A stretch of 64,000 nt of DNA from a virus (IMGVR_UViG_3300012007_000001:55238-119237); one strand, 5' to 3'. Positions 1,029 through 56,155 are shown, counted from the stretch's first letter. Program-made: numbers and translations. The notes: generated from the sequence alone by a model not told the origin.

Positions 1029-1466
1029 TCATAACTCCTGCTGTTGTTGACCGAGCCACACATCGAACTTAATCAAGGCATCTTCCATGTCGTGCTGATT
1101 GCCGACAATTCGGGTCTTAGTGAAATCAAATCCCCTGCGAAGTGCCGTCTTGATGGTGACACGCTTTCCACGTTCAATCCTGCCTGATTCGTTCATCGGC
1201 GCAAGATACCAACCTCCCCATAAATCGAGATAGTTAATGATATATGGCTTTTTCTGACCTTCTACAGCCAAGATGTCACGGTCAAAGATGAAATAATCAT
1301 CTTTGTCGTGAAATCCCGTGTACTGGTCTATAGTGCCACGTTCCACCTGTATGACATTTGTATTGTCAACACAAATCTCCATCGGCGCACGGTGCATCAG
1401 CAAGTCACCGTACACAAACTTTCTTGAAAGAATCGCCTTGCCGCGAAAAAGAATAGTCCTATCCAT
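1029..1466 (-). CDS. YopX-family protein
   Basis: ILFRGK, VYGDL, QYTG.HDK....IFDRDIL, IVGNQHD. Confidence 0.85.
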   Translation of the reverse strand: MDRTILFRGKAILSRKFVYGDLLMHRAPMEICVDNTNVIQVERGTIDQYTGFHDKDDYFIFDRDILAVEGQKKPYIINYLDLWGGWYLAPMNESGRIERGKRVTIKTALRRGFDFTKTRIVGNQHDMEDALIKFDVWLGQQQQEL

Positions 1467-1467
1467 A

Positions 1468-1857
1468 TTACTTTTTGTTTATGATGAATCTTTGCCATGC
1501 ACCGATATTCTCCATCAGCATACTGCCACCAACAATATTGAAGGTGTAGTAAGTTGTTCCGTTTTGACCGTTATAGGAGAAATTATACCTGCCATTTTCG
1601 GATGTCGTAACCACACATCTGCACAGATACGCACGATTCGATGTAGAAATGACGATATAAAGCTGGCCATTCTTCGGCAGTTCGCTTTCCATCAGGTCAT
1701 CATCAAACATGATAAACCCGTTCTTATACTGAAACGTCATGCCAGCACGAAAGGCATCTGCAACAACGGCGGCAAACTCTTTCTCTTGGTTAAAGTCGTT
1801 TTCCGCTTTCTTGCAGACTGCATCCAGTTCATTCACATATTTTTCTGTATATCCCAT
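1468..1857 (-). CDS. Hypothetical phage protein
   Basis: 129-aa ORF, 1-bp gaps to neighbours. Confidence 0.7.
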   Translation of the reverse strand: MGYTEKYVNELDAVCKKAENDFNQEKEFAAVVADAFRAGMTFQYKNGFIMFDDDLMESELPKNGQLYIVISTSNRAYLCRCVVTTSENGRYNFSYNGQNGTTYYTFNIVGGSMLMENIGAWQRFIINKK

Positions 1858-1858
1858 A

Positions 1859-2245
1859 TTATTTGCCTTTTTTCTTGCATTTGATAATCAGATTGCCAGT
1901 CTCTTCATCATTGCAGGTCTGCAAGTTGTTCTCGCAGTTCCGACAGAAGTAACCGCCCATCAGAGGCTTGTCACCTTCAACATTCAGCACAGGGCATTCA
2001 ACCCTTGCATTCGGTTTGATGACATACTGCTCATATTTTGGCTGTTCCACAGACTTTGTGCCGACAGGTACGATTTCGCACTCCGTCGGCTCTTTGTCTA
2101 TCCACTGCACATTGGGATGCTGGCTGTTATCCAACATTACCAACTGGCAGTTGTGCTTTGTTTTCCAGCTTCCGTTATGCTTGAACGGCTTCTCGTCAGT
2201 CACCAACAGAATCAGGTCATTGTTTTGTTCGCGTACTAAATACAT
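1859..2245 (-). CDS. Hypothetical phage protein, Cys-rich C-terminus
   Basis: 128-aa ORF in operon. Confidence 0.7.
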   Translation of the reverse strand: MYLVREQNNDLILLVTDEKPFKHNGSWKTKHNCQLVMLDNSQHPNVQWIDKEPTECEIVPVGTKSVEQPKYEQYVIKPNARVECPVLNVEGDKPLMGGYFCRNCENNLQTCNDEETGNLIIKCKKKGK

Positions 2246-9973: not shown

Positions 9974-10188
9974 ATCCTACTGCTTGACGAAAATCACATT
10001 CTTACCGTCCTTTCGCTTGTCAGCCTTGCATTCACCGTGAAAGTTCCACACATTCATGCGGTTGCAGTGCTGATGACGATAGAAACAGCCATCACAACTC
10101 TTGCTTTCTGACTCCTTGACCTGCAAAGAAACCGACCTGTTTCTGTCTGTGCGGTCATTGTAAACTTCACCAATTTGCCTTTCCATAA

Positions 10189-10725
10189 TTATATAGTTTT
10201 GAATTTATATCCATGCACAGTGCCGTTTCTTGATAGCGCACCTGATATTTGATTCTTCGGGATGCCGAGGTCAACGGCTGCGGCCTTGATAGACGGGTAT
10301 TCCTTCCCTGTAGTGACACAAAGGACTGGCTTTCTTACTACCACCTTGCCGAACCTGCAATTAGGGTCATGCACAAGCCTGTAAGCCGTCTGCCTGTACT
10401 GCTCTTTTCGCTTTTGCCGACTTTCCTCCGACCATTCCGACATGGGCTTGAATGTTGACGTGCCTTTCTTCATCGGCTGCGTGTACTTCGTGCGCTTATA
10501 TGCCAATTCATGCGTCCTGCCCTCAAGCCATAACTTATGATACTCGTCGTTATACATCCATTTCAGGCCGTAGTACAGATGACCAGTCTTGCAGGCATCG
10601 CTAATCTTGCCTGCTGTCAGGTTGTACTTCCGTGCCGCATCGACTATCCTTTCAAAATAGCCGCACATCGAACCGTCTGCATCAACGGCAACAATGTCCT
10701 TTGTTCGTTTGTCTTTCTTTTCCAT
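10189..10725 (-). CDS. NUMOD1-type DNA-binding protein (homing endonuclease-related, no nuclease domain seen)
   Basis: Two modules FERIVDAARKYNL...ISDAC and KPVLCVTTGKEYPSIKAAAVDLGI...IS. Confidence 0.75.
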   Translation of the reverse strand: MEKKDKRTKDIVAVDADGSMCGYFERIVDAARKYNLTAGKISDACKTGHLYYGLKWMYNDEYHKLWLEGRTHELAYKRTKYTQPMKKGTSTFKPMSEWSEESRQKRKEQYRQTAYRLVHDPNCRFGKVVVRKPVLCVTTGKEYPSIKAAAVDLGIPKNQISGALSRNGTVHGYKFKTI

Positions 10726-10727
10726 AG

Positions 10728-10868
10728 TAGAGGGAGCAGGGCTCGAACCTGCGACACACACAATCCATGTGTAACTTCATGTATGCGAGGCTGCTATTCT
10801 TGCGCTCGTATTTACAGCCATCCTCCCGTTCCATATACGGGTGTGCTAACCAACTACACCATCCCCCT
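10728..10868 (-). ncRNA. tRNA-like element with a 72-nt variable-region insertion
   Basis: AGGGGGA/TCCCTCT acceptor, GTGT/GCAC D stem, CCCGT/ACGGG stem with ATATGGA loop, GCAGG-TTCGAGC-CCTGC T arm. Confidence 0.7.
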
Positions 10869-11073
10869 GTTTTCAAAAATGGCGGCGGGCTGCGCTACCA
10901 GCCTCTCGCGCCCTGCATGACGGTGGATTCACACCCTTTCCATTTTATAAGGGTTTCTATCCGAATAAATTGAAACGTATTGCAATGCAGGTTTTACCGC
11001 TATAGGACATACCTAACCACCGAATAACTTAATTTTTTATCAATCGTATGAACATGTAACCATTTCCCACCCT

Positions 11074-11358
11074 TCAACCCTTGCACTCCCATTTAGCTGG
11101 CGGTCTGTGTCTGTAACCCGCCATCGTATTTGAATCGGGAGGTGTCATTGTAATGTATTCCGTAACGAATAGCATCAGCGTCGTTTCAGAATTGATTGGC
11201 AGCATTGTGAAACACGCCGTTTCAGCAGCATCGAAATGCAATGACTTTGCTACTACCGCCGTTTTCCTTCCGTCATCGTATAACGGCCTTGCTTCGGCAG
11301 TGAACATCAGACTGGCGAGAAATGCAGTCACCAAAAAGAGATTCATTTTCATGAGCAA
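11074..11358 (-). CDS. Small protein with predicted signal peptide
   Basis: MKMNLFLVTAFLASLMFTAEA. Confidence 0.5.
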   Translation of the reverse strand: MLMKMNLFLVTAFLASLMFTAEARPLYDDGRKTAVVAKSLHFDAAETACFTMLPINSETTLMLFVTEYITMTPPDSNTMAGYRHRPPAKWECKG

Positions 11359-19207: not shown

Positions 19208-19310
19208 TGGTGGGATGGCAGGGAGTCGAACCCTCTTTCAGTGTATTAACGTTCTCTTTTTATGGCACTCAAGAAAGCTGCTTTGTCGCCCGTGCGACGT
19301 TTTCCACCCC
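19208..19310 (-). ncRNA. tRNA-like element with encoded CCA and a non-canonical interior
   Basis: GGGGTGG/CCATCCC acceptor + ACCA; AGGG-TTCGACT-CCCT T arm; no standard D or anticodon arm. Confidence 0.55.
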
Positions 19311-47263: not shown

Positions 47264-48775
47264 CTAATAATCGTATGGGAGCACCAGTTCCCTGTATTTC
47301 CGTAATGCCCTGATGCTTTCGTAGTGGCCACGGATGTAGAAGTACCTGAACAGCCCTTCGCCCATAGAGTCGAGGATTTCCTTACGCTTTTCGTAGGTCT
47401 GCTTGCCCTTGCAGAATCCAAGATATGAGTTTATGACCTGTTCGATGCGCTTGCAGTCAAGGATGGTCAGTTCGTCCTTTGACTCTATAAGCCGCCTGAA
47501 ACCTATCGCCCGTTCCTCAAAACGAGCCAGCGTCCTGTTTGAAAGGTACAACCTGTTAGGCTTGATGTACGTGCCGACGAATGAAAGCCCGTGCGCGATT
47601 GGCTGCAAGTACCGCTTATCCTTGTGCATCTCCAGTTTCAGCTTATCACGAAGGAAAACCTCCATCTTCGGGATGGCACTAAGCAGGAAATCCAAGTCAT
47701 CGCACTGGTTATCCCAATCGTCAACGAAACGCTCGTATGAGAAATTCTGCCGTCTGAACAGGAAAAGCACGTACATGTCGAAGAATGACATCAGGAAGTT
47801 CGCAAACAGCTGCGTCGTAAGGTTGCCGATGGGCTCGCCCTTCTCGTCGCCGCAACCGAACAGCGACTTATTGGGCGCAAGACCTTCCCAAAGCGTAATC
47901 GGCGAGTTCAGCACGCAGTCGTTTTCAGGATGGTGCATGACGATGACCTCAACCGTGCGGATGAGAATATCCCAATACATTTCAGGCATATCGGAAAGCC
48001 CAAGGCGTGACAGGATTTCATAGTCAATCCTCTGCCAGCCCTCACGCTGCCAGCGTTTGCGCCAGCGGGTGATGAAGCGTTCCAAGAGATACCAAAGCAG
48101 CTTCTTGTCTATCGACATGAAGAATCCCGTCAAGTCGCCCTTGAACACCCAAGCGGGCTTAGTGAATCCGTCAGACACGCGCCTCATGCCGTCGGCGCAG
48201 TGGCGCACGCAGGCATCTGTTCCGAATCCCTTGCGGCAGTTGAATGACACGTTACCCTGTGATATGAAACGCTCCTCAAACAGCGGCTCCAGTCTGAGGC
48301 ATACCCAGTGATGCACGATGCGGTCACGGAAATTCGCCGCAAACACCTCGCGCAGCTTCGGGTATTTCACTAAAAAGCAAGTGGAAGTCGTTGGTCTGTA
48401 GATACCAGTCCACAACTCCCAAGCAAGACACGGCAAATCCGCATAGGCAATCTGCATGTATTCGACTGCCTGCGTAGAAGCCATCTTGCCACGCAAGCAA
48501 TCCTTGTAAGCATCCACCACGGAATCATAGAATGCACTGTATAAGCCCCCACATGCGGCCACAGGACGAACAACGTTACTGTTATACTTGTTGTTGTTGT
48601 TGACGTTACCATTGTTGAAATTCACGTTCCAAGCATTGTTGCTGTTGTTCTCAGTAACAGACCAGTAGTTGCTGTCTTTCTGCGGTTTTGCATCTTCGTA
48701 ACTGCGACGGGCTGTAAAGTCCATCACAGTAAACCGCCCATTTAGGGGATTATGTAACACTCTGCCAGTCATCAT
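47264..48775 (-). CDS. DGR reverse transcriptase (TR lies within its 5' coding region)
   Basis: PKLREVFAANFRDRIVHH, SFNCRKGFGT, KGDL.GFFMSID, PIGNLTTQLFAN, RFVDD, FVG. Confidence 0.95.
   Translation of the reverse strand: MMTGRVLHNPLNGRFTVMDFTARRSYEDAKPQKDSNYWSVTENNSNNAWNVNFNNGNVNNNNKYNSNVVRPVAACGGLYSAFYDSVVDAYKDCLRGKMASTQAVEYMQIAYADLPCLAWELWTGIYRPTTSTCFLVKYPKLREVFAANFRDRIVHHWVCLRLEPLFEERFISQGNVSFNCRKGFGTDACVRHCADGMRRVSDGFTKPAWVFKGDLTGFFMSIDKKLLWYLLERFITRWRKRWQREGWQRIDYEILSRLGLSDMPEMYWDILIRTVEVIVMHHPENDCVLNSPITLWEGLAPNKSLFGCGDEKGEPIGNLTTQLFANFLMSFFDMYVLFLFRRQNFSYERFVDDWDNQCDDLDFLLSAIPKMEVFLRDKLKLEMHKDKRYLQPIAHGLSFVGTYIKPNRLYLSNRTLARFEERAIGFRRLIESKDELTILDCKRIEQVINSYLGFCKGKQTYEKRKEILDSMGEGLFRYFYIRGHYESIRALRKYRELVLPYDY
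48553..48675 (-). repeat. DGR template repeat (TR), 123 bp
   Basis: 16 Asn (AAY) codons, 43 adenines; aligns without gaps to the VR with 14 mismatches, 13 at TR adenines. Confidence 0.97.
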
Positions 48776-49387: not shown

Positions 49388-52300
49388 TTAAATGTCATAA
49401 ATAAATGCGGCCACAGGACGAACAACGTAACTGTTAGCCTTGTTGTAGTTGCCGACGTAACCATTGCTGAAAAGCACGGTCCAAGCATGGTTGCTGCTGT
49501 ACTCAGTAACAGACCAGTAGTTGCTGTTAGTGGGAATGTTAAAAGGTGTTGTCGTGACCCCCGCATCTGCAACTCTTTTTAAGATATTCGCAAATAACGG
49601 CAGCAACGCCTCGCTGTCGGGATTCTCGTTGGCGTTTTCAGCCGTACACCTTCCACCTGCTTCATACGTCTGATGGCCGCAACTGTTATAGAAGAAATTG
49701 TAAATCCTTGCCAGTAGTCCGCATGTCGGCAGCAGCCACTTATTGCGCTTATACTGGTCATTCAGCGTTCCTTCAACCGTCGGCTCATACACATGGCAGG
49801 CGAATGCTGCTGGGTAGAATAGCTGCCTATAGCGCGTCGGTACTGAAACGCCTTGCGCTGTCATCGCCGCAACAAGTGCCTGCATTGCATTCGCAAGTTC
49901 CGTCGGTGTGGTCGGATAAGACTCGCCGAGATAGCCGTTGATGATGGATTTTGCATGGTTGATGACGATTTCATTCTTTGATTCCACGTCGAAGTCCGAG
50001 CAGCTTCGGTTCTGCACCAACACGGCATAGCCGTCATCTTGTGCCGCGTCATGGAATGAAGCGTCATTGATGTATCGGTAGTCAGTGTTCGCAGCATCCG
50101 TCGGGCTTGTAATACCCGATGACGTAAGGTTTGCCATTGCGGTGTCAACTGCATTGGAAAGACCTGCGGCTGTGGCAATCTCGTTATACACCGATGACGG
50201 GAATCCGTTCTGTGCCGCTTCTTCGGGATAGATACCCCAAACGTGTGAGCCAGTGTTGTAGGTCGAATCGTCAGACTTGCAGACGGCATTCTCCTTGGCA
50301 TAGACCCACAACTTCCGCTGTGAAGCAGAAATCTCGTCAACCTTCACGATAGCACCAACAAGTTCCTTCGACTGGTCGAACTCATCATCAAACGCACCGT
50401 CTGCATAGGCGAAATCACCAATCTTAGGGAGTCGCTTATGGAATCCAACCTTCTTGTTATATGTCATCACCGTGCCATCAAGCAGCGTGACTGTCATCCT
50501 AAGAGTGAATGTCCTGTACTCATTGTTAGGGTAGGTGTTCGTGACGTTCACTGTACCTTTGACGGCATCTGTAATTGTCGCATAGGCGGCTGCACCAGCC
50601 TCGACGAAAGCAAACGTAATGGCCTCATGGCCGCTTACGACGGCAACATTGTTACCCACGTCGTTAGTCGATGCTGCGCTCCAGTCGTTATGCGTTCCAA
50701 GCGTATAGAGGTACTTCTCGCCCCTAATCATCACGCCGTTCACGTCACGCTTCTGATAGTCGATATACAGTCTGTCATTCGGTATTCCGCTCGGTACGGT
50801 CTGAATGTCGCCGAACTTCCTGATAAGCTGGATGACCTCGGAGAATGAAAGCCATCTGTCATTGGCCGCACGCAGCATGACAACCTTTCCGTACATGTTG
50901 CACGTCGTAGCACCTGCCAGCCACATCAGCACGTCGGCCTTGGTGTCAGACCAGTTGACGTGTCGGAGGTTGAGCAGCGTCAGCCTTGCAGGTGTAGCAC
51001 CGCCAGCGGAACGCTCATCGTAGATGTCCCTGAGTATCTGCTGCACGTTCAGGCTTGGACTGTTGGTGACGGTCAGTGAATCCAGCTGTGAGCCGCTCTC
51101 GATGGAAAGCGTGGCAAGGCTGGGCTGGGCTGTCAGCGACAAAGCCGTGATAGCGGATGGCAGTCTGAGGATTGTCAGTGATGCCGTCTGCGGAACATTC
51201 ACAGCACCGATGCTGGTCTGTCTGAGGTCAACCTCTTCGCACAGCGTCAAGGCCGATATGTTCAGCGGTGCGCGTTCAGTGGCCGACAGCGTAGAACATC
51301 CCTTCAACGACAGCTTTCTGAGGCGCGTACCCGTTGCGATACGGAATGAAGCGGGTCTGAAAGCAGGCTCATATCCATCCGTAGGCACGCTGACAGGCAC
51401 GGCAGAAGGATTATTCGCCAGTGTCGCGGGTGTCGGGTAGTACGTCGTAGGCTCTGCGATAAGTTCCGTCAGGCGACGGCCATCAAGGTTGAATGCGATG
51501 TTCGGGTCGCATGACATATCACCGATATTGCCGACAGAACGGTAGTAGTTCAGTCCGAACAGCGAAACGCCGTTATCGGAAATCACCACCGACGGCACGG
51601 TGTACTCCAGTACCTCGTTAGGTGCGACGCGGGTATATGTCGGCTTGGAGTCCGTTTGGAAGCCGAAGCATGGATAGATATACTGGTGCGGCTTCACATG
51701 GAATGTGTACGTCGGCGTTGTCACACCATCGGGCAATGCCTTGGCGTTGAATGCCATAGAAGCACCAGCATCCGCAAGTCCAGTCAATCCGTTACGGGCA
51801 TGTGACTGTGCAGGAAGGAACTCACCGAAAACGGCGTATGATGCCATATAGACAAGTCGGCGGTTCATAAACTGCAACTCAGATTCCAGCTGGTCGCCCA
51901 TTGACTGCGTAAGCGGGTCGATGGTGTCACGTCCCAAGAAGCCCAGCATGGCGGGGAACTCATAGCGGATTCGCGCCGCCTCGTTGAATGCCACCTGCGG
52001 GAAATAACGCTGGATGTCGAAGATGTAGCGGTTCAGTGCCTTCCATACACCGCTCATCGTGTCTGACTCTGCCGAGCCGATACCGCCAGTAAGCGCAGCC
52101 ATCAGTGACAGGATGCTGTTCAAAGCCTGTGAAAGTTCATGCGTACCTTCCCACATTTCCTCGCAGAGATTGAACAACGTGTTCTGCCTACCTTCATAGC
52201 AGCAGTCGGTATGGCCTGTGTCTTTGTCATCCCACGGGTGCATACGGTCAACGTAGTACGGCTTGGACTGGAAGCCGTTGTTGTCGGTTGCCAGCGTCGT

Positions 52301-55300
52301 GTCAACGTCATCCTGATGCAGTTCTATAAGTTTCGTCACGGGGTCGATGACATAGTAGGTGTTCTTTGAGCAGTTGTCAGTACCAGCGATGAAATGGTTC
52401 TCAAAGCAGTAGTGGAACTTCAATGATGACACCTTGAAATACGTGCCGATGTTCTGCCTTGCATCCTCTACCACGCATTCGATGAACTTCTGATTCACGG
52501 CTTCGTGGTTGGCTTTCTGCGCGTCTGTCATCGAACTCCAGTTCATGCCCGTGTAGTCGCGGATGTCAACAGAATCGTAGGCGTAGCCGTTCCAAAGGCC
52601 AGCATCCACCCATGCCCTGTCATAGAAATCCCAGCGTTTCAGCTTATAGTCGTTGGAGTCCGTGCCAGCGTTTGAGCGACACCACCACTTCTCTTTCTTC
52701 TGAAAGTCGGTGAGATTCTCCTGCTGAAGCTGTGCGAACGTTCCACGGTACAGGTTGATTCGCGGGTTGTGCATATACAGGAAATTCCAAGCGGCCTTAT
52801 AGATGTTGGTAAGCCTTGACTTCGGATATTCCAGCACGTCGCCGCCTGACTCCACCTCATCGACTGCGCCGCCGTCGAAGCCAACGCATTTCTCTGCCGA
52901 CACCTGAACCGTCTGCCCTGTCACCTGTCCTGTCTGTTCGTCAACGACATCGACAACGGAAGTCTTGCGGTACATCCACGCCTCAGATGCGGGGTCATAA
53001 AATACCTTTGCCTCCTGATTGCCATGAGCGACATCATCCCACGGTGCAACCATATCGCCGAGAATAGTGTTGTTGTTCGCACCTTCTGCCATAGCGAAAT
53101 AGTCATGGCCGTTGGGTCTGTAGTGGGCATCGCCTACAGTCGTAATCTTGGAAGCCTTCTTGCTGTAGCCCCATGTGGGTTTATCCATCTTTCCAGGGCC
53201 GAATGCGCCTGGCCCGCGATAGACAGCGGAAGCAGGGTCTTCGTTATCCCTGTCAGCAGTGAAGAACATGACGGGCTCGGTGTGCTTTGCGACCAATGCC
53301 GTAGGCGTGTCGCGCTGCAAGGAGTTCTGACCGCAGAAGCGGGTGTGCAACTCATGATAGAGCCAGTTGATGCCGATAAGGTGCGACTGCATGGAAGAGG
53401 CGTAGTTGATTTTCAGCACAAGTTTCTGTGCAAGCGGCTGGTTGGGCGAAATCATGTAGCCACGTCCACGGTACTTGCCGTTTCCGTCAACCCATCCGTC
53501 GGGTACGGTCACATAGCCATCGGCATACGGATAATCCTTAGTTCCGTTTCCTACGGGGAAGTCGGAGCCGAGGTTGCCGCCATAGATGCTGACCACCATA
53601 TTGCCCTCACCGTCATCATGCGGCTGACCGACATGAATTGACGAATGGAAGTCCGCAACGGCCACTTGGATAGTATCTTCAACGTCGCCTATCTTGAATT
53701 GCAGGTTACTGTAATAATATGTGTTGGCCGTCGTACCCTGACGCTTCGGTTTCAGCGACTTTGTTTCCTTGCAGATTGTTCCCGAACATTCGGGCTGGTA
53801 TGTGCCATCGTAGCCGAAGCACTTCATCTCAATCCATCCCTTCGAGCCGCTGGTTTCCTTGATGTAGGGCTCCACGCCGTGCCATACCATCGTGCGCAAG
53901 CCGTTTGCCTGACATGCCTCCAGTGATACAAGGCCGTTGGTCTTGGTAATGGCGTTGGCCTGCTTCACGCGGATTTTCTCCTCGCTGGCCGGAAGCGTTG
54001 AGATGTAGTTCTGAACAGCGGCCTTTGGGTCGATGGCCTGTGCCGAGTTATCCCAAATGCGGATGCCGTAGATGTCGATGTCCGCACCTGACTGGCCAAT
54101 CTTGATGCCGCCGTTAGACATGGCAGCGGTACAGAACTCACGCGCACCTGACTCCGTGCTGAATCGCAGTTCACGGCAAATGACACCATTGATTAGCACA
54201 CGCACAAGGTTCAGCGTTCCCCTTGCACGGCTTTGGTCGGCTGCAATGGCCAAACCGTCGCCGTAGGTGTTAGGCGCGACGTTAGGCACGATGTTGATGC
54301 TGATGTGCGTGCGCCTGTCCTCACTCCAGCGGAAATCCGTTTCGGTCTCTACACCTTCTGAAAGTGCCGATGCCATAGTTCCTACCATCGGGCGCATACG
54401 AAGCCCAAGGTAAGTGCCACGGCCTGCGTCAAGCACCTCGCAAAGCTGGATGATTGGGTCATCCTCGTTTACGACGTTACGGACACAGAAATCTATGTCA
54501 ATGGTCATCGTTGAGTCGGGCGACGCAAGGAACTGCGCAAACGGGTTGTACTGGATGTTAAGCAGACAGCCAGCGGGGATGCGGAGCACCTTGTTGCCGT
54601 CATCATCGACAGTCCATCCGTCCGTTCCGTCCATCTTGAATCCGTCGCTCCATGTGCTTGCCACCAGTGCGTTGTTGTTGCGGGCGTTAAGGATGCGCTT
54701 CGGGTTGGCCTCCGAGTTGTTGCGGGTCTTCGGGTTCAGCAGGAACACCGAGCCTGCCGTCGGCTGGAAGCCGCCAGTATTATCCACCTTGACATACATA
54801 TAGCCTGTGCCGTAGCTGTCTGCCAAGAAGTCAACAAGCGTACCGTTGTCGTTGCGCACGGCATGTAGGAACGTGTCGAAGTCATCAGCGACGGCCTCGC
54901 CTGCGTTCTGCTCGATTTCAAGCGTGGCGTTCAGGTCATACTGCTGTCCTGCCTGTGCCGTGACCTCCTGATTGAAGTATTCCGTCTGTGTCGTTGTCAG
55001 GATGTTGTCGCTTCGGTCTGTCATCAGCAATGAGAACGTCACGGGGTCGCCTTGGTTTGTATATACGCCCTCGATAAGTTTAGGCGAATAGACTGCGTAC
55101 TGACATACGCGGCCTGACACGAAGTTGTCAATGGAAGAGGCGATGCTCTGAATCAGCAGGCGGGGCTGCATCAAGGTCGCTGGCTGGTTGGTGTTGACCA
55201 TCATCAGCTGGTGCTCGATGACATCCGACGTGATTGTGCCGTCGTTTCCGTCCGCTGCCGTGAGCCACGCCCTTACGGTATGAACGCCAGTGCGGAGTAT

Positions 55301-56155
55301 GCCCTTCGTTCCTGCGCCGTCCTGACACTGCACGGTGATGGAGCCCTGCTGTGCTGCTGAATAGTCTATCGTATCGTTATGGCCTGTATATCCGTCAACA
55401 CCCGACACCTGTATATGCAGGGTCTTTGCCACGTTGCCCTCAATCATAAAGTTCAAGGGGAGCGATGTAAGCTGGCTGGCCTGTACTGGCTGCGCCCAAT
55501 TCGTCTGTAGGGTTACGGCCAAAGAAACGGAAGCGATTTTCAGGATGACGTTGCCGCTGGCTACTGTTGCATCTTCACCGCTGGAGTCTGTATATCCGAA
55601 CGTAGCCCTCAAGCGGATTTGGTTCTGACGGCCTGTAAGAAGGTACTGGCCGACGTTCACGGTTGTAGGATAGTCAACGGCTGACGGGTCGGAACTGACT
55701 ATAGGCTGCGATGCTACCCTCGTCCAGCTTGAGCCGTCGGTGCTTCTTTCGATGATAAGCGTACCGTTTCCGCTCATGGCCTCCTGTTCTGATGTCGCGG
55801 CGATGATGTGCAAGGCCGAGAACCTCAGACTGGCACTGAACGGGTCGCCGTCCTTTACCGCATAGTTCCTTGACGTGTCACGGTCGCAGTACAGACGCGC
55901 AACATAGGAGTCTGTCTGTGACGTAGAGATTGGTAGCTGCTGCTCGTCGAGCAACAGTTCCGCGTTTCCTACAGGGTCGCTGATGTAAGCGGCCTTGTCT
56001 GCCGCAGACGCGAATATTTGGATGTTGTAGAACGTGCCGTCCTGCACCCATCTCACCGCGCCTGCCTTTTGGCCGAGAATCTTCTTCAAGAATGCTTCGA
56101 CTTCAATGCCTTCGTGGTTTTCCCACGCTTCCTGCAAATTGATAATATCTGCCAT
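49388..56155 (-). CDS. DGR target protein, 2255 aa: CotH-kinase-like region, LRR-like region, C-terminal C-type lectin-like VR domain
   Basis: RQGTT, DNCSKNTYY, DDVDTTLATDN.G; LxxLxL repeats; YWS.TE....AW...VRPV. Confidence 0.9.
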   Translation of the reverse strand: MADIINLQEAWENHEGIEVEAFLKKILGQKAGAVRWVQDGTFYNIQIFASAADKAAYISDPVGNAELLLDEQQLPISTSQTDSYVARLYCDRDTSRNYAVKDGDPFSASLRFSALHIIAATSEQEAMSGNGTLIIERSTDGSSWTRVASQPIVSSDPSAVDYPTTVNVGQYLLTGRQNQIRLRATFGYTDSSGEDATVASGNVILKIASVSLAVTLQTNWAQPVQASQLTSLPLNFMIEGNVAKTLHIQVSGVDGYTGHNDTIDYSAAQQGSITVQCQDGAGTKGILRTGVHTVRAWLTAADGNDGTITSDVIEHQLMMVNTNQPATLMQPRLLIQSIASSIDNFVSGRVCQYAVYSPKLIEGVYTNQGDPVTFSLLMTDRSDNILTTTQTEYFNQEVTAQAGQQYDLNATLEIEQNAGEAVADDFDTFLHAVRNDNGTLVDFLADSYGTGYMYVKVDNTGGFQPTAGSVFLLNPKTRNNSEANPKRILNARNNNALVASTWSDGFKMDGTDGWTVDDDGNKVLRIPAGCLLNIQYNPFAQFLASPDSTMTIDIDFCVRNVVNEDDPIIQLCEVLDAGRGTYLGLRMRPMVGTMASALSEGVETETDFRWSEDRRTHISINIVPNVAPNTYGDGLAIAADQSRARGTLNLVRVLINGVICRELRFSTESGAREFCTAAMSNGGIKIGQSGADIDIYGIRIWDNSAQAIDPKAAVQNYISTLPASEEKIRVKQANAITKTNGLVSLEACQANGLRTMVWHGVEPYIKETSGSKGWIEMKCFGYDGTYQPECSGTICKETKSLKPKRQGTTANTYYYSNLQFKIGDVEDTIQVAVADFHSSIHVGQPHDDGEGNMVVSIYGGNLGSDFPVGNGTKDYPYADGYVTVPDGWVDGNGKYRGRGYMISPNQPLAQKLVLKINYASSMQSHLIGINWLYHELHTRFCGQNSLQRDTPTALVAKHTEPVMFFTADRDNEDPASAVYRGPGAFGPGKMDKPTWGYSKKASKITTVGDAHYRPNGHDYFAMAEGANNNTILGDMVAPWDDVAHGNQEAKVFYDPASEAWMYRKTSVVDVVDEQTGQVTGQTVQVSAEKCVGFDGGAVDEVESGGDVLEYPKSRLTNIYKAAWNFLYMHNPRINLYRGTFAQLQQENLTDFQKKEKWWCRSNAGTDSNDYKLKRWDFYDRAWVDAGLWNGYAYDSVDIRDYTGMNWSSMTDAQKANHEAVNQKFIECVVEDARQNIGTYFKVSSLKFHYCFENHFIAGTDNCSKNTYYVIDPVTKLIELHQDDVDTTLATDNNGFQSKPYYVDRMHPWDDKDTGHTDCCYEGRQNTLFNLCEEMWEGTHELSQALNSILSLMAALTGGIGSAESDTMSGVWKALNRYIFDIQRYFPQVAFNEAARIRYEFPAMLGFLGRDTIDPLTQSMGDQLESELQFMNRRLVYMASYAVFGEFLPAQSHARNGLTGLADAGASMAFNAKALPDGVTTPTYTFHVKPHQYIYPCFGFQTDSKPTYTRVAPNEVLEYTVPSVVISDNGVSLFGLNYYRSVGNIGDMSCDPNIAFNLDGRRLTELIAEPTTYYPTPATLANNPSAVPVSVPTDGYEPAFRPASFRIATGTRLRKLSLKGCSTLSATERAPLNISALTLCEEVDLRQTSIGAVNVPQTASLTILRLPSAITALSLTAQPSLATLSIESGSQLDSLTVTNSPSLNVQQILRDIYDERSAGGATPARLTLLNLRHVNWSDTKADVLMWLAGATTCNMYGKVVMLRAANDRWLSFSEVIQLIRKFGDIQTVPSGIPNDRLYIDYQKRDVNGVMIRGEKYLYTLGTHNDWSAASTNDVGNNVAVVSGHEAITFAFVEAGAAAYATITDAVKGTVNVTNTYPNNEYRTFTLRMTVTLLDGTVMTYNKKVGFHKRLPKIGDFAYADGAFDDEFDQSKELVGAIVKVDEISASQRKLWVYAKENAVCKSDDSTYNTGSHVWGIYPEEAAQNGFPSSVYNEIATAAGLSNAVDTAMANLTSSGITSPTDAANTDYRYINDASFHDAAQDDGYAVLVQNRSCSDFDVESKNEIVINHAKSIINGYLGESYPTTPTELANAMQALVAAMTAQGVSVPTRYRQLFYPAAFACHVYEPTVEGTLNDQYKRNKWLLPTCGLLARIYNFFYNSCGHQTYEAGGRCTAENANENPDSEALLPLFANILKRVADAGVTTTPFNIPTNSNYWSVTEYSSNHAWTVLFSNGYVGNYNKANSYVVRPVAAFIYDI
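49405..49527 (-). repeat. DGR variable repeat (VR)
   Basis: Encodes SNYWSVTEYSSNHAWTVLFSNGYVGNYNKANSYVVRPVAA at the target C-terminus. Confidence 0.97.

Follow-up and report, generated by a model that had tools for sequence, protein, structure and literature searches.

The stretch of viral DNA analysed here (the window; 64,000 nucleotides of a complete virus record of 119,237 bp with terminal repeats) contains, at 10728-10868 on the minus strand, a real and conserved gene for a predicted tRNA-shaped RNA of uncultured phages. Judged from sequence comparisons, this element encodes a tRNA-shaped RNA that is under selection and has a structured insert in its variable loop. The locus exists as two alleles, the long form present in the window and an 82-nt form with an unrelated interior, which share an acceptor/T-arm frame. 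It is part of an accessory locus with two tRNA-framed RNAs, the interiors of which are exchanged as cassettes. The sequence has the features listed in the initial annotation, including G3-U70, A73, the AUAUGGA loop and a 14-codon mini-ORF. The parts of the long form are the following:

10728..10868, minus strand: whole tRNA-shaped RNA gene (long form), 141 nt, identified by the Rfam tRNA match
10862..10868, minus strand: acceptor 5' strand AGGGGGA, the partner of which is 10729-10735
10843..10859, minus strand: D arm GUGU AGUUGGUUA GCAC with A14, G15 and G18G19, aligned to the RF00005 D arm
10825..10841, minus strand: anticodon arm CCCGU-AUAUGGA-ACGGG, with AUG at the anticodon position (10832-10834)
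10787..10822, minus strand: insert hairpin 1 (36 nt), stem GGCUGU/GCAGCC plus 2 basal pairs
10754..10786, minus strand: insert hairpin 2 (33 nt), G.U-rich 10-bp stem and 13-nt loop
10736..10752, minus strand: T arm GCAGG-UUCGAGC-CCUGC, with a C-G to U-A pair change in the relative L132
10728..10735, minus strand: acceptor 3' strand UCCCUCU and discriminator A73; CCA is not encoded

The Rfam tRNA model RF00005 matched the element end to end (model positions 1-71 of 71), as the initial annotation had proposed to check, with 43.5 bits for a gathering score of 29 (E = 6e-06, computed for the 64-kb window), and the alignment places 72 extra nt between model positions 44 and 45. In the relatives L132 and L131 the same model scored 47.6 and 42.2 bits, respectively. 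The four stems have 7, 4, 5 and 5 bp and the bases involved in core tertiary contacts are complete (U8, A14, G15 with C48, G18G19 and UUCGA). The sequence following A73 is CUAUG or CGAAA in the copies and CCA in none. On these features, the predicted RNA retains everything needed by tRNA-maturation enzymes and for the L-shape. No credible match to any Rfam family other than tRNA was found in the segment 10600-11100 at E values up to 10, and ARAGORN left the element uncalled in the window, where its calls were limited to a tRNA-Gln and a tRNA-Glu, with no tmRNA. The minimum-energy fold is a cloverleaf with two insert hairpins side by side, which recovers the two hairpins initially proposed for the insert, and a compensated pair is found in hairpin 1 across copies. 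As the fold energy is unexceptional relative to shuffled sequences (z of -0.58 for the whole element and +0.12 for the insert), thermodynamics alone is no proof of the structure.

The nature of the insert is illustrated by a paralogous tRNA-type gene located outside the window (G000:C1:45446-45518, minus strand, corresponding to L005 5846-5918, minus strand), which ARAGORN reports as tRNA-Val(GAC). This gene, referred to below as tRNA(GAC), has an initiator-tRNA body with a CGCGGGA acceptor, a C1xA72 mismatch, A11-U24 and U37. A 5' motif, GGGAUGG.G.AGUUGGU, is common to this gene and the element, which are also identical over 24 nt (10732-10755) comprising the T arm and flanking bases. Relative to this paralogue the insert is 68 nt long and splits the normal AGGUC variable loop into AGG and UC; the comparison and the Rfam alignment both place it in the slot of the class II long arm, between positions 45 and 48. 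A second genomic copy of the insert, sought with the idea of a mobile repeat, was not found, and the insert is single-copy. A third tRNA-shaped element of 103 nt is present in the window between the NinB and NinG genes (19208-19310, minus strand), with a rewired interior between the acceptor GGGGUGG/CCAUCCC and the T arm AGGG-UUCGACU-CCCU; its CCA is encoded.

Relatives were collected by DNA-pattern searches, which identified the sister phage L001 in IMG/VR and the metagenome contigs L131 and L132, and from the homologues of a neighbouring 69-aa protein (nine protein clusters) and their contigs, which gave fifteen more loci. Besides the sister phage, the DNA patterns retrieved only unrelated tRNAs and coding DNA from viral contigs, no homologue from genome contigs and no DNA match from GenBank phages. 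A synteny search of viral contigs with the endonuclease and the 94-aa protein returned the sister phage only. Copies were defined by direct reading together with a covariance model built from the element (R1), which scored 175 bits at the window and 150-175 bits in six relatives; on 100 other phage loci, it hit only ordinary tRNAs and unrelated odd tRNA-like genes. The long-form set consists of seven distinct copies (window, L001, L131, L132, L154, L156 and L160). The search for homologues and covariation that had been suggested at the outset thus yielded six further non-identical copies in which the structure is kept. At 24-27 bits, R1 also pointed to unrelated phage contigs carrying tRNA-like genes of 103-109 nt with normal acceptor and T arms and odd interiors (L067 3786-3888, minus strand; L097 5021-5123, plus strand; L051 1800-1902, plus strand; L021 1084-1192, plus strand; L098 8660-8765, minus strand).

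Among the seven copies, which come from one narrow clade and owe most of their covariation to one sequence, L132, pairing is kept in 98.9% of pair cells and both bases were substituted in four pairs, namely 1:72, 4:69, the outer one of hairpin 1 and one of the T stem. Of the tRNA stems, the acceptor and the T stem contain the compensated changes. Among 500 column shuffles, only 1 reached the observed values, and sliding the partners by 1-3 columns left 34-60% of cells paired. Pair 1:72 is A-U, AxG (in three copies) or C-G, and pair 4:69 is G-C, G.U or A-U. The D and anticodon arms are invariant in all seven copies, and since their stems never vary they are uninformative for covariation. In L132 the outer pair of hairpin 1 changed from G-C to U-A and the apex from C-GCAA-G to C-GUAA-G, both of which fit a GNRA loop; the apex belongs to a conserved apical part of 19 nt. 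Hairpin 2 of L132 has a loop shorter by 11 nt and a stem that survives three one-sided changes, and the loop sequence of this hairpin is unconserved across copies. The 11-nt indel excludes a protein-coding constraint.

The element is also better conserved than its surroundings. Its identity to the L132 copy is 86% (76% for the flanking genes) and to the L131 copy 96% (76-80% for the flanking genes). Columns 5-49, which span the acceptor end, the D arm, the anticodon arm and the start of the insert, show no change in any copy; the rest of the L132 element differs at 18 aligned positions, and by our own estimate the probability that columns 5-49 remain invariant by chance is about 0.001. A73 (column 141), the GG of the D loop and the UUCGA of the T loop are invariant in the seven copies as well. 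Combined, the kept pairing and a structured insert under selection in seven copies agree with the initial view that the gene is not a decayed pseudogene.

The relatives led to a different outcome for the alanine identity that had been attributed to the RNA. G3-U70 is present in one of the seven copies, that of the window, and the six others have A3-U70; pairs 1:72 and 4:69 vary freely, and tRNA-Ala was rejected. The acceptor helix is kept while its identity positions drift, which argues against AlaRS and any synthetase reading positions 1-4. A73 is present as expected for a tRNA-Ala and carries little weight because many other tRNAs share it. The idea of a HisRS substrate fared no better: the anticodon is AUG, with A34, instead of GUG, position -1 is C or A, and the discriminator is A73, so that the G-1 opposite C73 of a tRNA-His is missing. 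Regarding the mini-ORF, its ATG is replaced by ATT in L132, and the 11-nt indel is found 3' of this codon, in insert hairpin 2. The loss of this start, the full anticodon arm and the lack of an ARAGORN tmRNA call led to the rejection of a tmRNA or tRNA-mRNA hybrid. Finally, the start region of the following gene resembles the anticodon loop in L132 (AUAUGGAACG); this match was attributed to Met-Glu-Arg coding and chance and is absent in the window. On the basis of these comparisons, the predicted RNA is not an alanine tRNA and has no conserved Ala, His or tmRNA features.

The element is located in a region of early and replication genes. Two DNA methylase genes are followed there by a 94-aa gene, a non-coding stretch of about 200 nt and then the element, after which come a 178-aa endonuclease-like gene and the 69-aa gene. 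The helicase of the phage is 66% identical to a Bacteroides phage helicase and other relatives infect Cellulophaga; from this kinship, the host of the phage clade is probably a member of the Bacteroidota. The features surrounding the element, together with the short form found in other contigs, are the following:

11074..11358, minus strand: 94-aa gene upstream of both RNAs, its product having a hydrophobic N-terminus; aligned to the L131 and L132 counterparts
11022..11073, minus strand: conserved non-coding block from the 94-aa stop to RNA #1, 86.5% identity to L132 (76% for the flanking genes)
10880..11021, minus strand: RNA #1, second cloverleaf-shaped RNA, 142 nt, 11 nt upstream of the element, from consensus folds
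10189..10725, minus strand: 178-aa NUMOD-type homing-endonuclease-like gene (weak Pfam NUMOD1 and I-HmuI NUMOD-like matches; PHROG HNH / homing endonuclease)
9977..10186, minus strand: 69-aa Cys-rich gene, the anchor for collecting loci, product 78% identical to that of L132
L151 1880-1961, plus strand: short form, also in L152, L153, L155, L157, L158, L159 and L163

No Pfam or PHROG family was found for the 94-aa protein. The block 11022..11073 is a possible promoter region; a scan of the minus strand for sigma-70-type promoters and terminators gave no match in this block and nothing useful. A U-run located 3' of RNA #1 is not conserved and is gone in L132. The start codon of the endonuclease-like gene lies 2 nt 3' of A73 in all copies having this gene, in long and short forms alike. 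The 2-nt spacing reported for the NUMOD1 gene in the initial annotation therefore holds here, but does not reflect a fixed link: L132 contains the RNA and lacks the endonuclease gene, and 28 nt separate its element from the ATG of the 69-aa gene. The endonuclease gene is, by this comparison, a separate insertion not tied to the element. In the endonuclease-like protein only NUMOD-type DNA-binding modules were matched (residues about 96-176), and residues 1-95 gave no recognisable nuclease domain. Elsewhere in the window, a reverse transcriptase gene (47264-48775, minus strand; PHROG 1423, Pfam RVT_1) adjoins the gene of a 2255-aa protein (49388-56155, minus strand), and Lcl_C domains were found in the part of the genome around it; this pair of genes looks like a diversity-generating retroelement targeting a tail-fibre-type protein.

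The short form is found at the corresponding position, again just ahead of the endonuclease gene, and is identical in eight contigs from different samples. It keeps the 7-bp acceptor stem with a single mismatch, U8-G9-G10, A73 and a T arm of sequence GCAGG-UUCGACC-CCUGC, has other hairpins at the places of the D and anticodon arms, and folds into a four-way shape. Over the flanks, the eight phages reach about 93% identity to the window. Between the window and L151, the flanks are about 90-97% identical and only two islands cannot be aligned, at about 10750-10865 and about 10925-11010. The first corresponds to the interior of the element and the second to the centre of RNA #1. At the element, the T arm and the acceptor ends are thus constant and the interior is replaced.

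RNA #1 has a comparable organization. Its frame consists of a 6-bp closing stem (the third pair being U.G or C-G), a 5' hairpin, a 3' hairpin and an unpaired A. The 3' hairpin, GGYUG-GUAGCG-CARCC, adjoins the closing stem and contains a pair that is U-A, C-G or U.G. The centre is a long variable arm that exists in three unrelated versions among the relatives, and no match to RNA #1 was found in Rfam. A more distant phage, L150, is devoid of the 94-aa gene, both RNAs and the endonuclease gene, which indicates that the RNA module is accessory. In this part of L150 (1640-2713, plus strand), a PAPS-reductase-like gene is present 57 nt before the 70-aa gene.

From these data we propose that the element is an exchangeable tRNA-scaffold RNA which tRNA enzymes would mature and which would work away from the ribosome, either as a decoy or as a display scaffold, a proposal that in our judgement stands evenly poised between right and wrong. 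The element would be co-transcribed with RNA #1, joint transcription being inferred from the conserved block after the 94-aa stop and from the lack of conservation of the U-run after RNA #1. The tRNA frame would recruit RNase P for the 5' cut, 3' trimming after A73 and CCA addition, and the stable product of about 144 nt would be a tRNA mimic off the ribosome. The invariant D and anticodon arms would be bait for a host factor handling tRNAs (a nuclease, a modification enzyme or a synthetase); alternatively or additionally, the GNRA-capped hairpin 1 would be displayed on the tRNA scaffold. The working surfaces would then be the D and anticodon arms, which never vary, together with the conserved apex of hairpin 1. 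Cassette exchange and accessory status seem to fit better with host-phage conflict, for instance a nuclease bait, than with housekeeping decoding. No partner protein or defence system was identified. A search of the phage genes revealed no aminoacyl-tRNA synthetase, CCA enzyme, RtcB, RNA ligase or splicing endonuclease. A PNK3P-domain protein (a lone 192-aa phosphatase-type ORF) was considered for RNA repair and rejected; because the family also matches the E. coli and B. thetaiotaomicron controls, it is no evidence of RNA repair.

Could the element nevertheless be a working elongator tRNA that reads CAU (anticodon AUG, with A34), the giant arm being tolerated or used by an anticodon-blind synthetase, such as LeuRS, which needs A73, or SerRS, which needs a long arm? 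The complete cloverleaf, U33, the 7-nt loop and the invariant A73 are in line with it, as is G36-G37, the usual m1G37 context on tRNAs for codons starting with C. CAU makes up 58% of the His codons of the phage (391 codons), and the phage has further tRNA genes (Gln, Glu and GAC). However, in the 228 distinct ARAGORN tRNAs from the loci collected here, A32 occurs in 5, A34 in 8 and the A32/A38 combination of the AUAUGGA loop in 1; U33 and G37 are thus accompanied by two rare residues, and the loop departs from the canonical one at position 32. The longest of these tRNAs has 98 nt, compared to 141 nt for the element, which also exceeds the usual tRNA length of about 70-95 nt, and the hairpins of 36 and 33 nt are far larger than any known variable arm. 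As to the synthetases, the HisRS determinants G-1 and C73 are missing; E. coli LeuRS uses A15-U48 and Ser tRNAs usually have G73, but the element has G15-C48 and A73. Moreover, the anticodon arm is wholly replaced in sister phages otherwise about 93% identical, indicating that decoding is dispensable at the locus. The role of the RNA is probably not ordinary codon reading, and we consider an elongator tRNA unlikely. An intron of 68-72 nt, the removal of which would join the halves into a normal tRNA of 73 nt whose variable loop reads AGGUC, is very unlikely. Excision of 68 nt would restore exactly the AGGUC loop of the tRNA(GAC) type, and in G002, a phage found in the same series of samples, tRNA genes contain inserts of 47-58 nt within or close to the anticodon loop, showing that the element is not alone among phage tRNA genes in having a small insert. 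On the other hand, group I and group II introns are larger than about 140 nt, and the insert is too short for either and without an Rfam intron match. Inspection by eye of the predicted fold, in which the two hairpins are adjacent, showed no bulge-helix-bulge pairing across the junctions. Bacteroidota, and not archaea, are the hosts of the nearest cultured relatives, which bears on introns of the archaeal type, and RtcB, an RNA ligase and a splicing endonuclease were not found in the phage. The change of the conserved hairpin-1 apex from one GNRA to another fits a functional arm of the mature RNA better than an intron.

The part common to the long and short forms, namely the acceptor and T arm, is what RNase P/Z would require as a substrate, and the endonuclease ATG always lies 2 nt past the discriminator where the gene is present. 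Both observations would be expected if the RNA acted in cis, either as RNase P/Z punctuation separating the upstream transcript from the mRNA or by masking the endonuclease start codon. Such a role is nonetheless improbable: L132 keeps the RNA without the endonuclease gene, the next ATG being 28 nt away, and a cutting signal needs neither 45 invariant nt of the D and anticodon arms nor a conserved hairpin-1 apex. The remaining alternative, a tRNA pseudogene that decays or drifts neutrally, received its insertion by chance and travels with the homing endonuclease, could account for the A1xG72 mismatch of three copies and for the polymorphism of the locus, which is missing in L150. We regard it as extremely improbable given that 98.9% of cells stay paired with four compensated pairs and that the element is more conserved than the neighbouring genes.

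The inserts of G002 were observed in a complete genome of 135.6 kb. At least three genes of its tRNA cluster have inserts (L138 about 1370-2140, minus strand, equivalent to G002:C1 about 114100-114900), and two of these inserts end in CAGCAAATT(T/A)ATTTT. They may constitute a family of small intron-like inserts.

The proposed scaffold RNA was compared with known RNAs. Like class II tRNAs, the element has a full cloverleaf and an extra arm leaving the core between positions 45/46 and 47/48. Unlike them, it has two adjacent hairpins totalling 68-72 nt rather than one stem-loop of at most about 20 nt, its AUG anticodon suits no class II amino acid (Leu, Ser, Tyr or Sec), and it differs by its 4-bp D stem and the Levitt pair G15-C48. 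Some class II synthetases ignore the anticodon. With tmRNA it shares a tRNA-like body with a large internal insertion and, in the window genome only, G3-U70, A73 and a short ORF, but it differs by its complete D and anticodon arms. The T4 stable RNAs C and D (species 1 and 2) belong to a tRNA cluster, are matured with the tRNAs and lie beside free-standing homing endonuclease genes. They resemble the element in being phage-encoded, about 120-140 nt long, among tRNA genes and near homing endonucleases; compared by description only, the T4 RNAs are not known to be full cloverleaves with an anticodon arm and a giant variable arm. In the engineered tRNA scaffold reportedly devised by Ponchon and Dardel, a cargo replaces the anticodon arm and the enzymes of the cell process and stabilise the foreign RNA. 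The same logic may apply to the long and short alleles; however, that scaffold is artificial and takes its cargo at the anticodon arm, whereas the element would carry it in the variable loop with an invariant anticodon arm. A literature search for tRNA-like phage RNAs with long arms found no description of such an RNA.

Phage tRNAs are now regarded as weapons against host defences that cleave tRNAs. In a published example, Septu cuts tRNA-Tyr in its variable loop and the homing endonuclease SegB amplifies anti-defence loci (PMC13096335). In a speculative extension to which we attach a low probability, the long and short forms and the centres of RNA #1 would be alternative cargoes, exchanged between co-infecting phages with the aid of the endonuclease and serving as decoys or inhibitors against different tRNA-directed defences or translation factors. 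In a bolder version, the loop sequence UAUGG of the long form, a 5-nt complement to the loop UCAUA of Met-tRNA, would bind methionine tRNA directly.

What is new here is that the element is one of two alleles, together with the swappable centre of RNA #1. The case also calls for caution, as the alanine identity was suggested by the G3-U70 of one genome and removed by six relatives, and such genes are missed or mislabelled by ARAGORN and Rfam annotation. If the element is a decoy or a scaffold, the combination of a complete tRNA body with a selected module of 70 nt would widen the known roles of tRNA-shaped RNAs, and the same would hold for the cassette-like exchange of its interior among near-identical phages.
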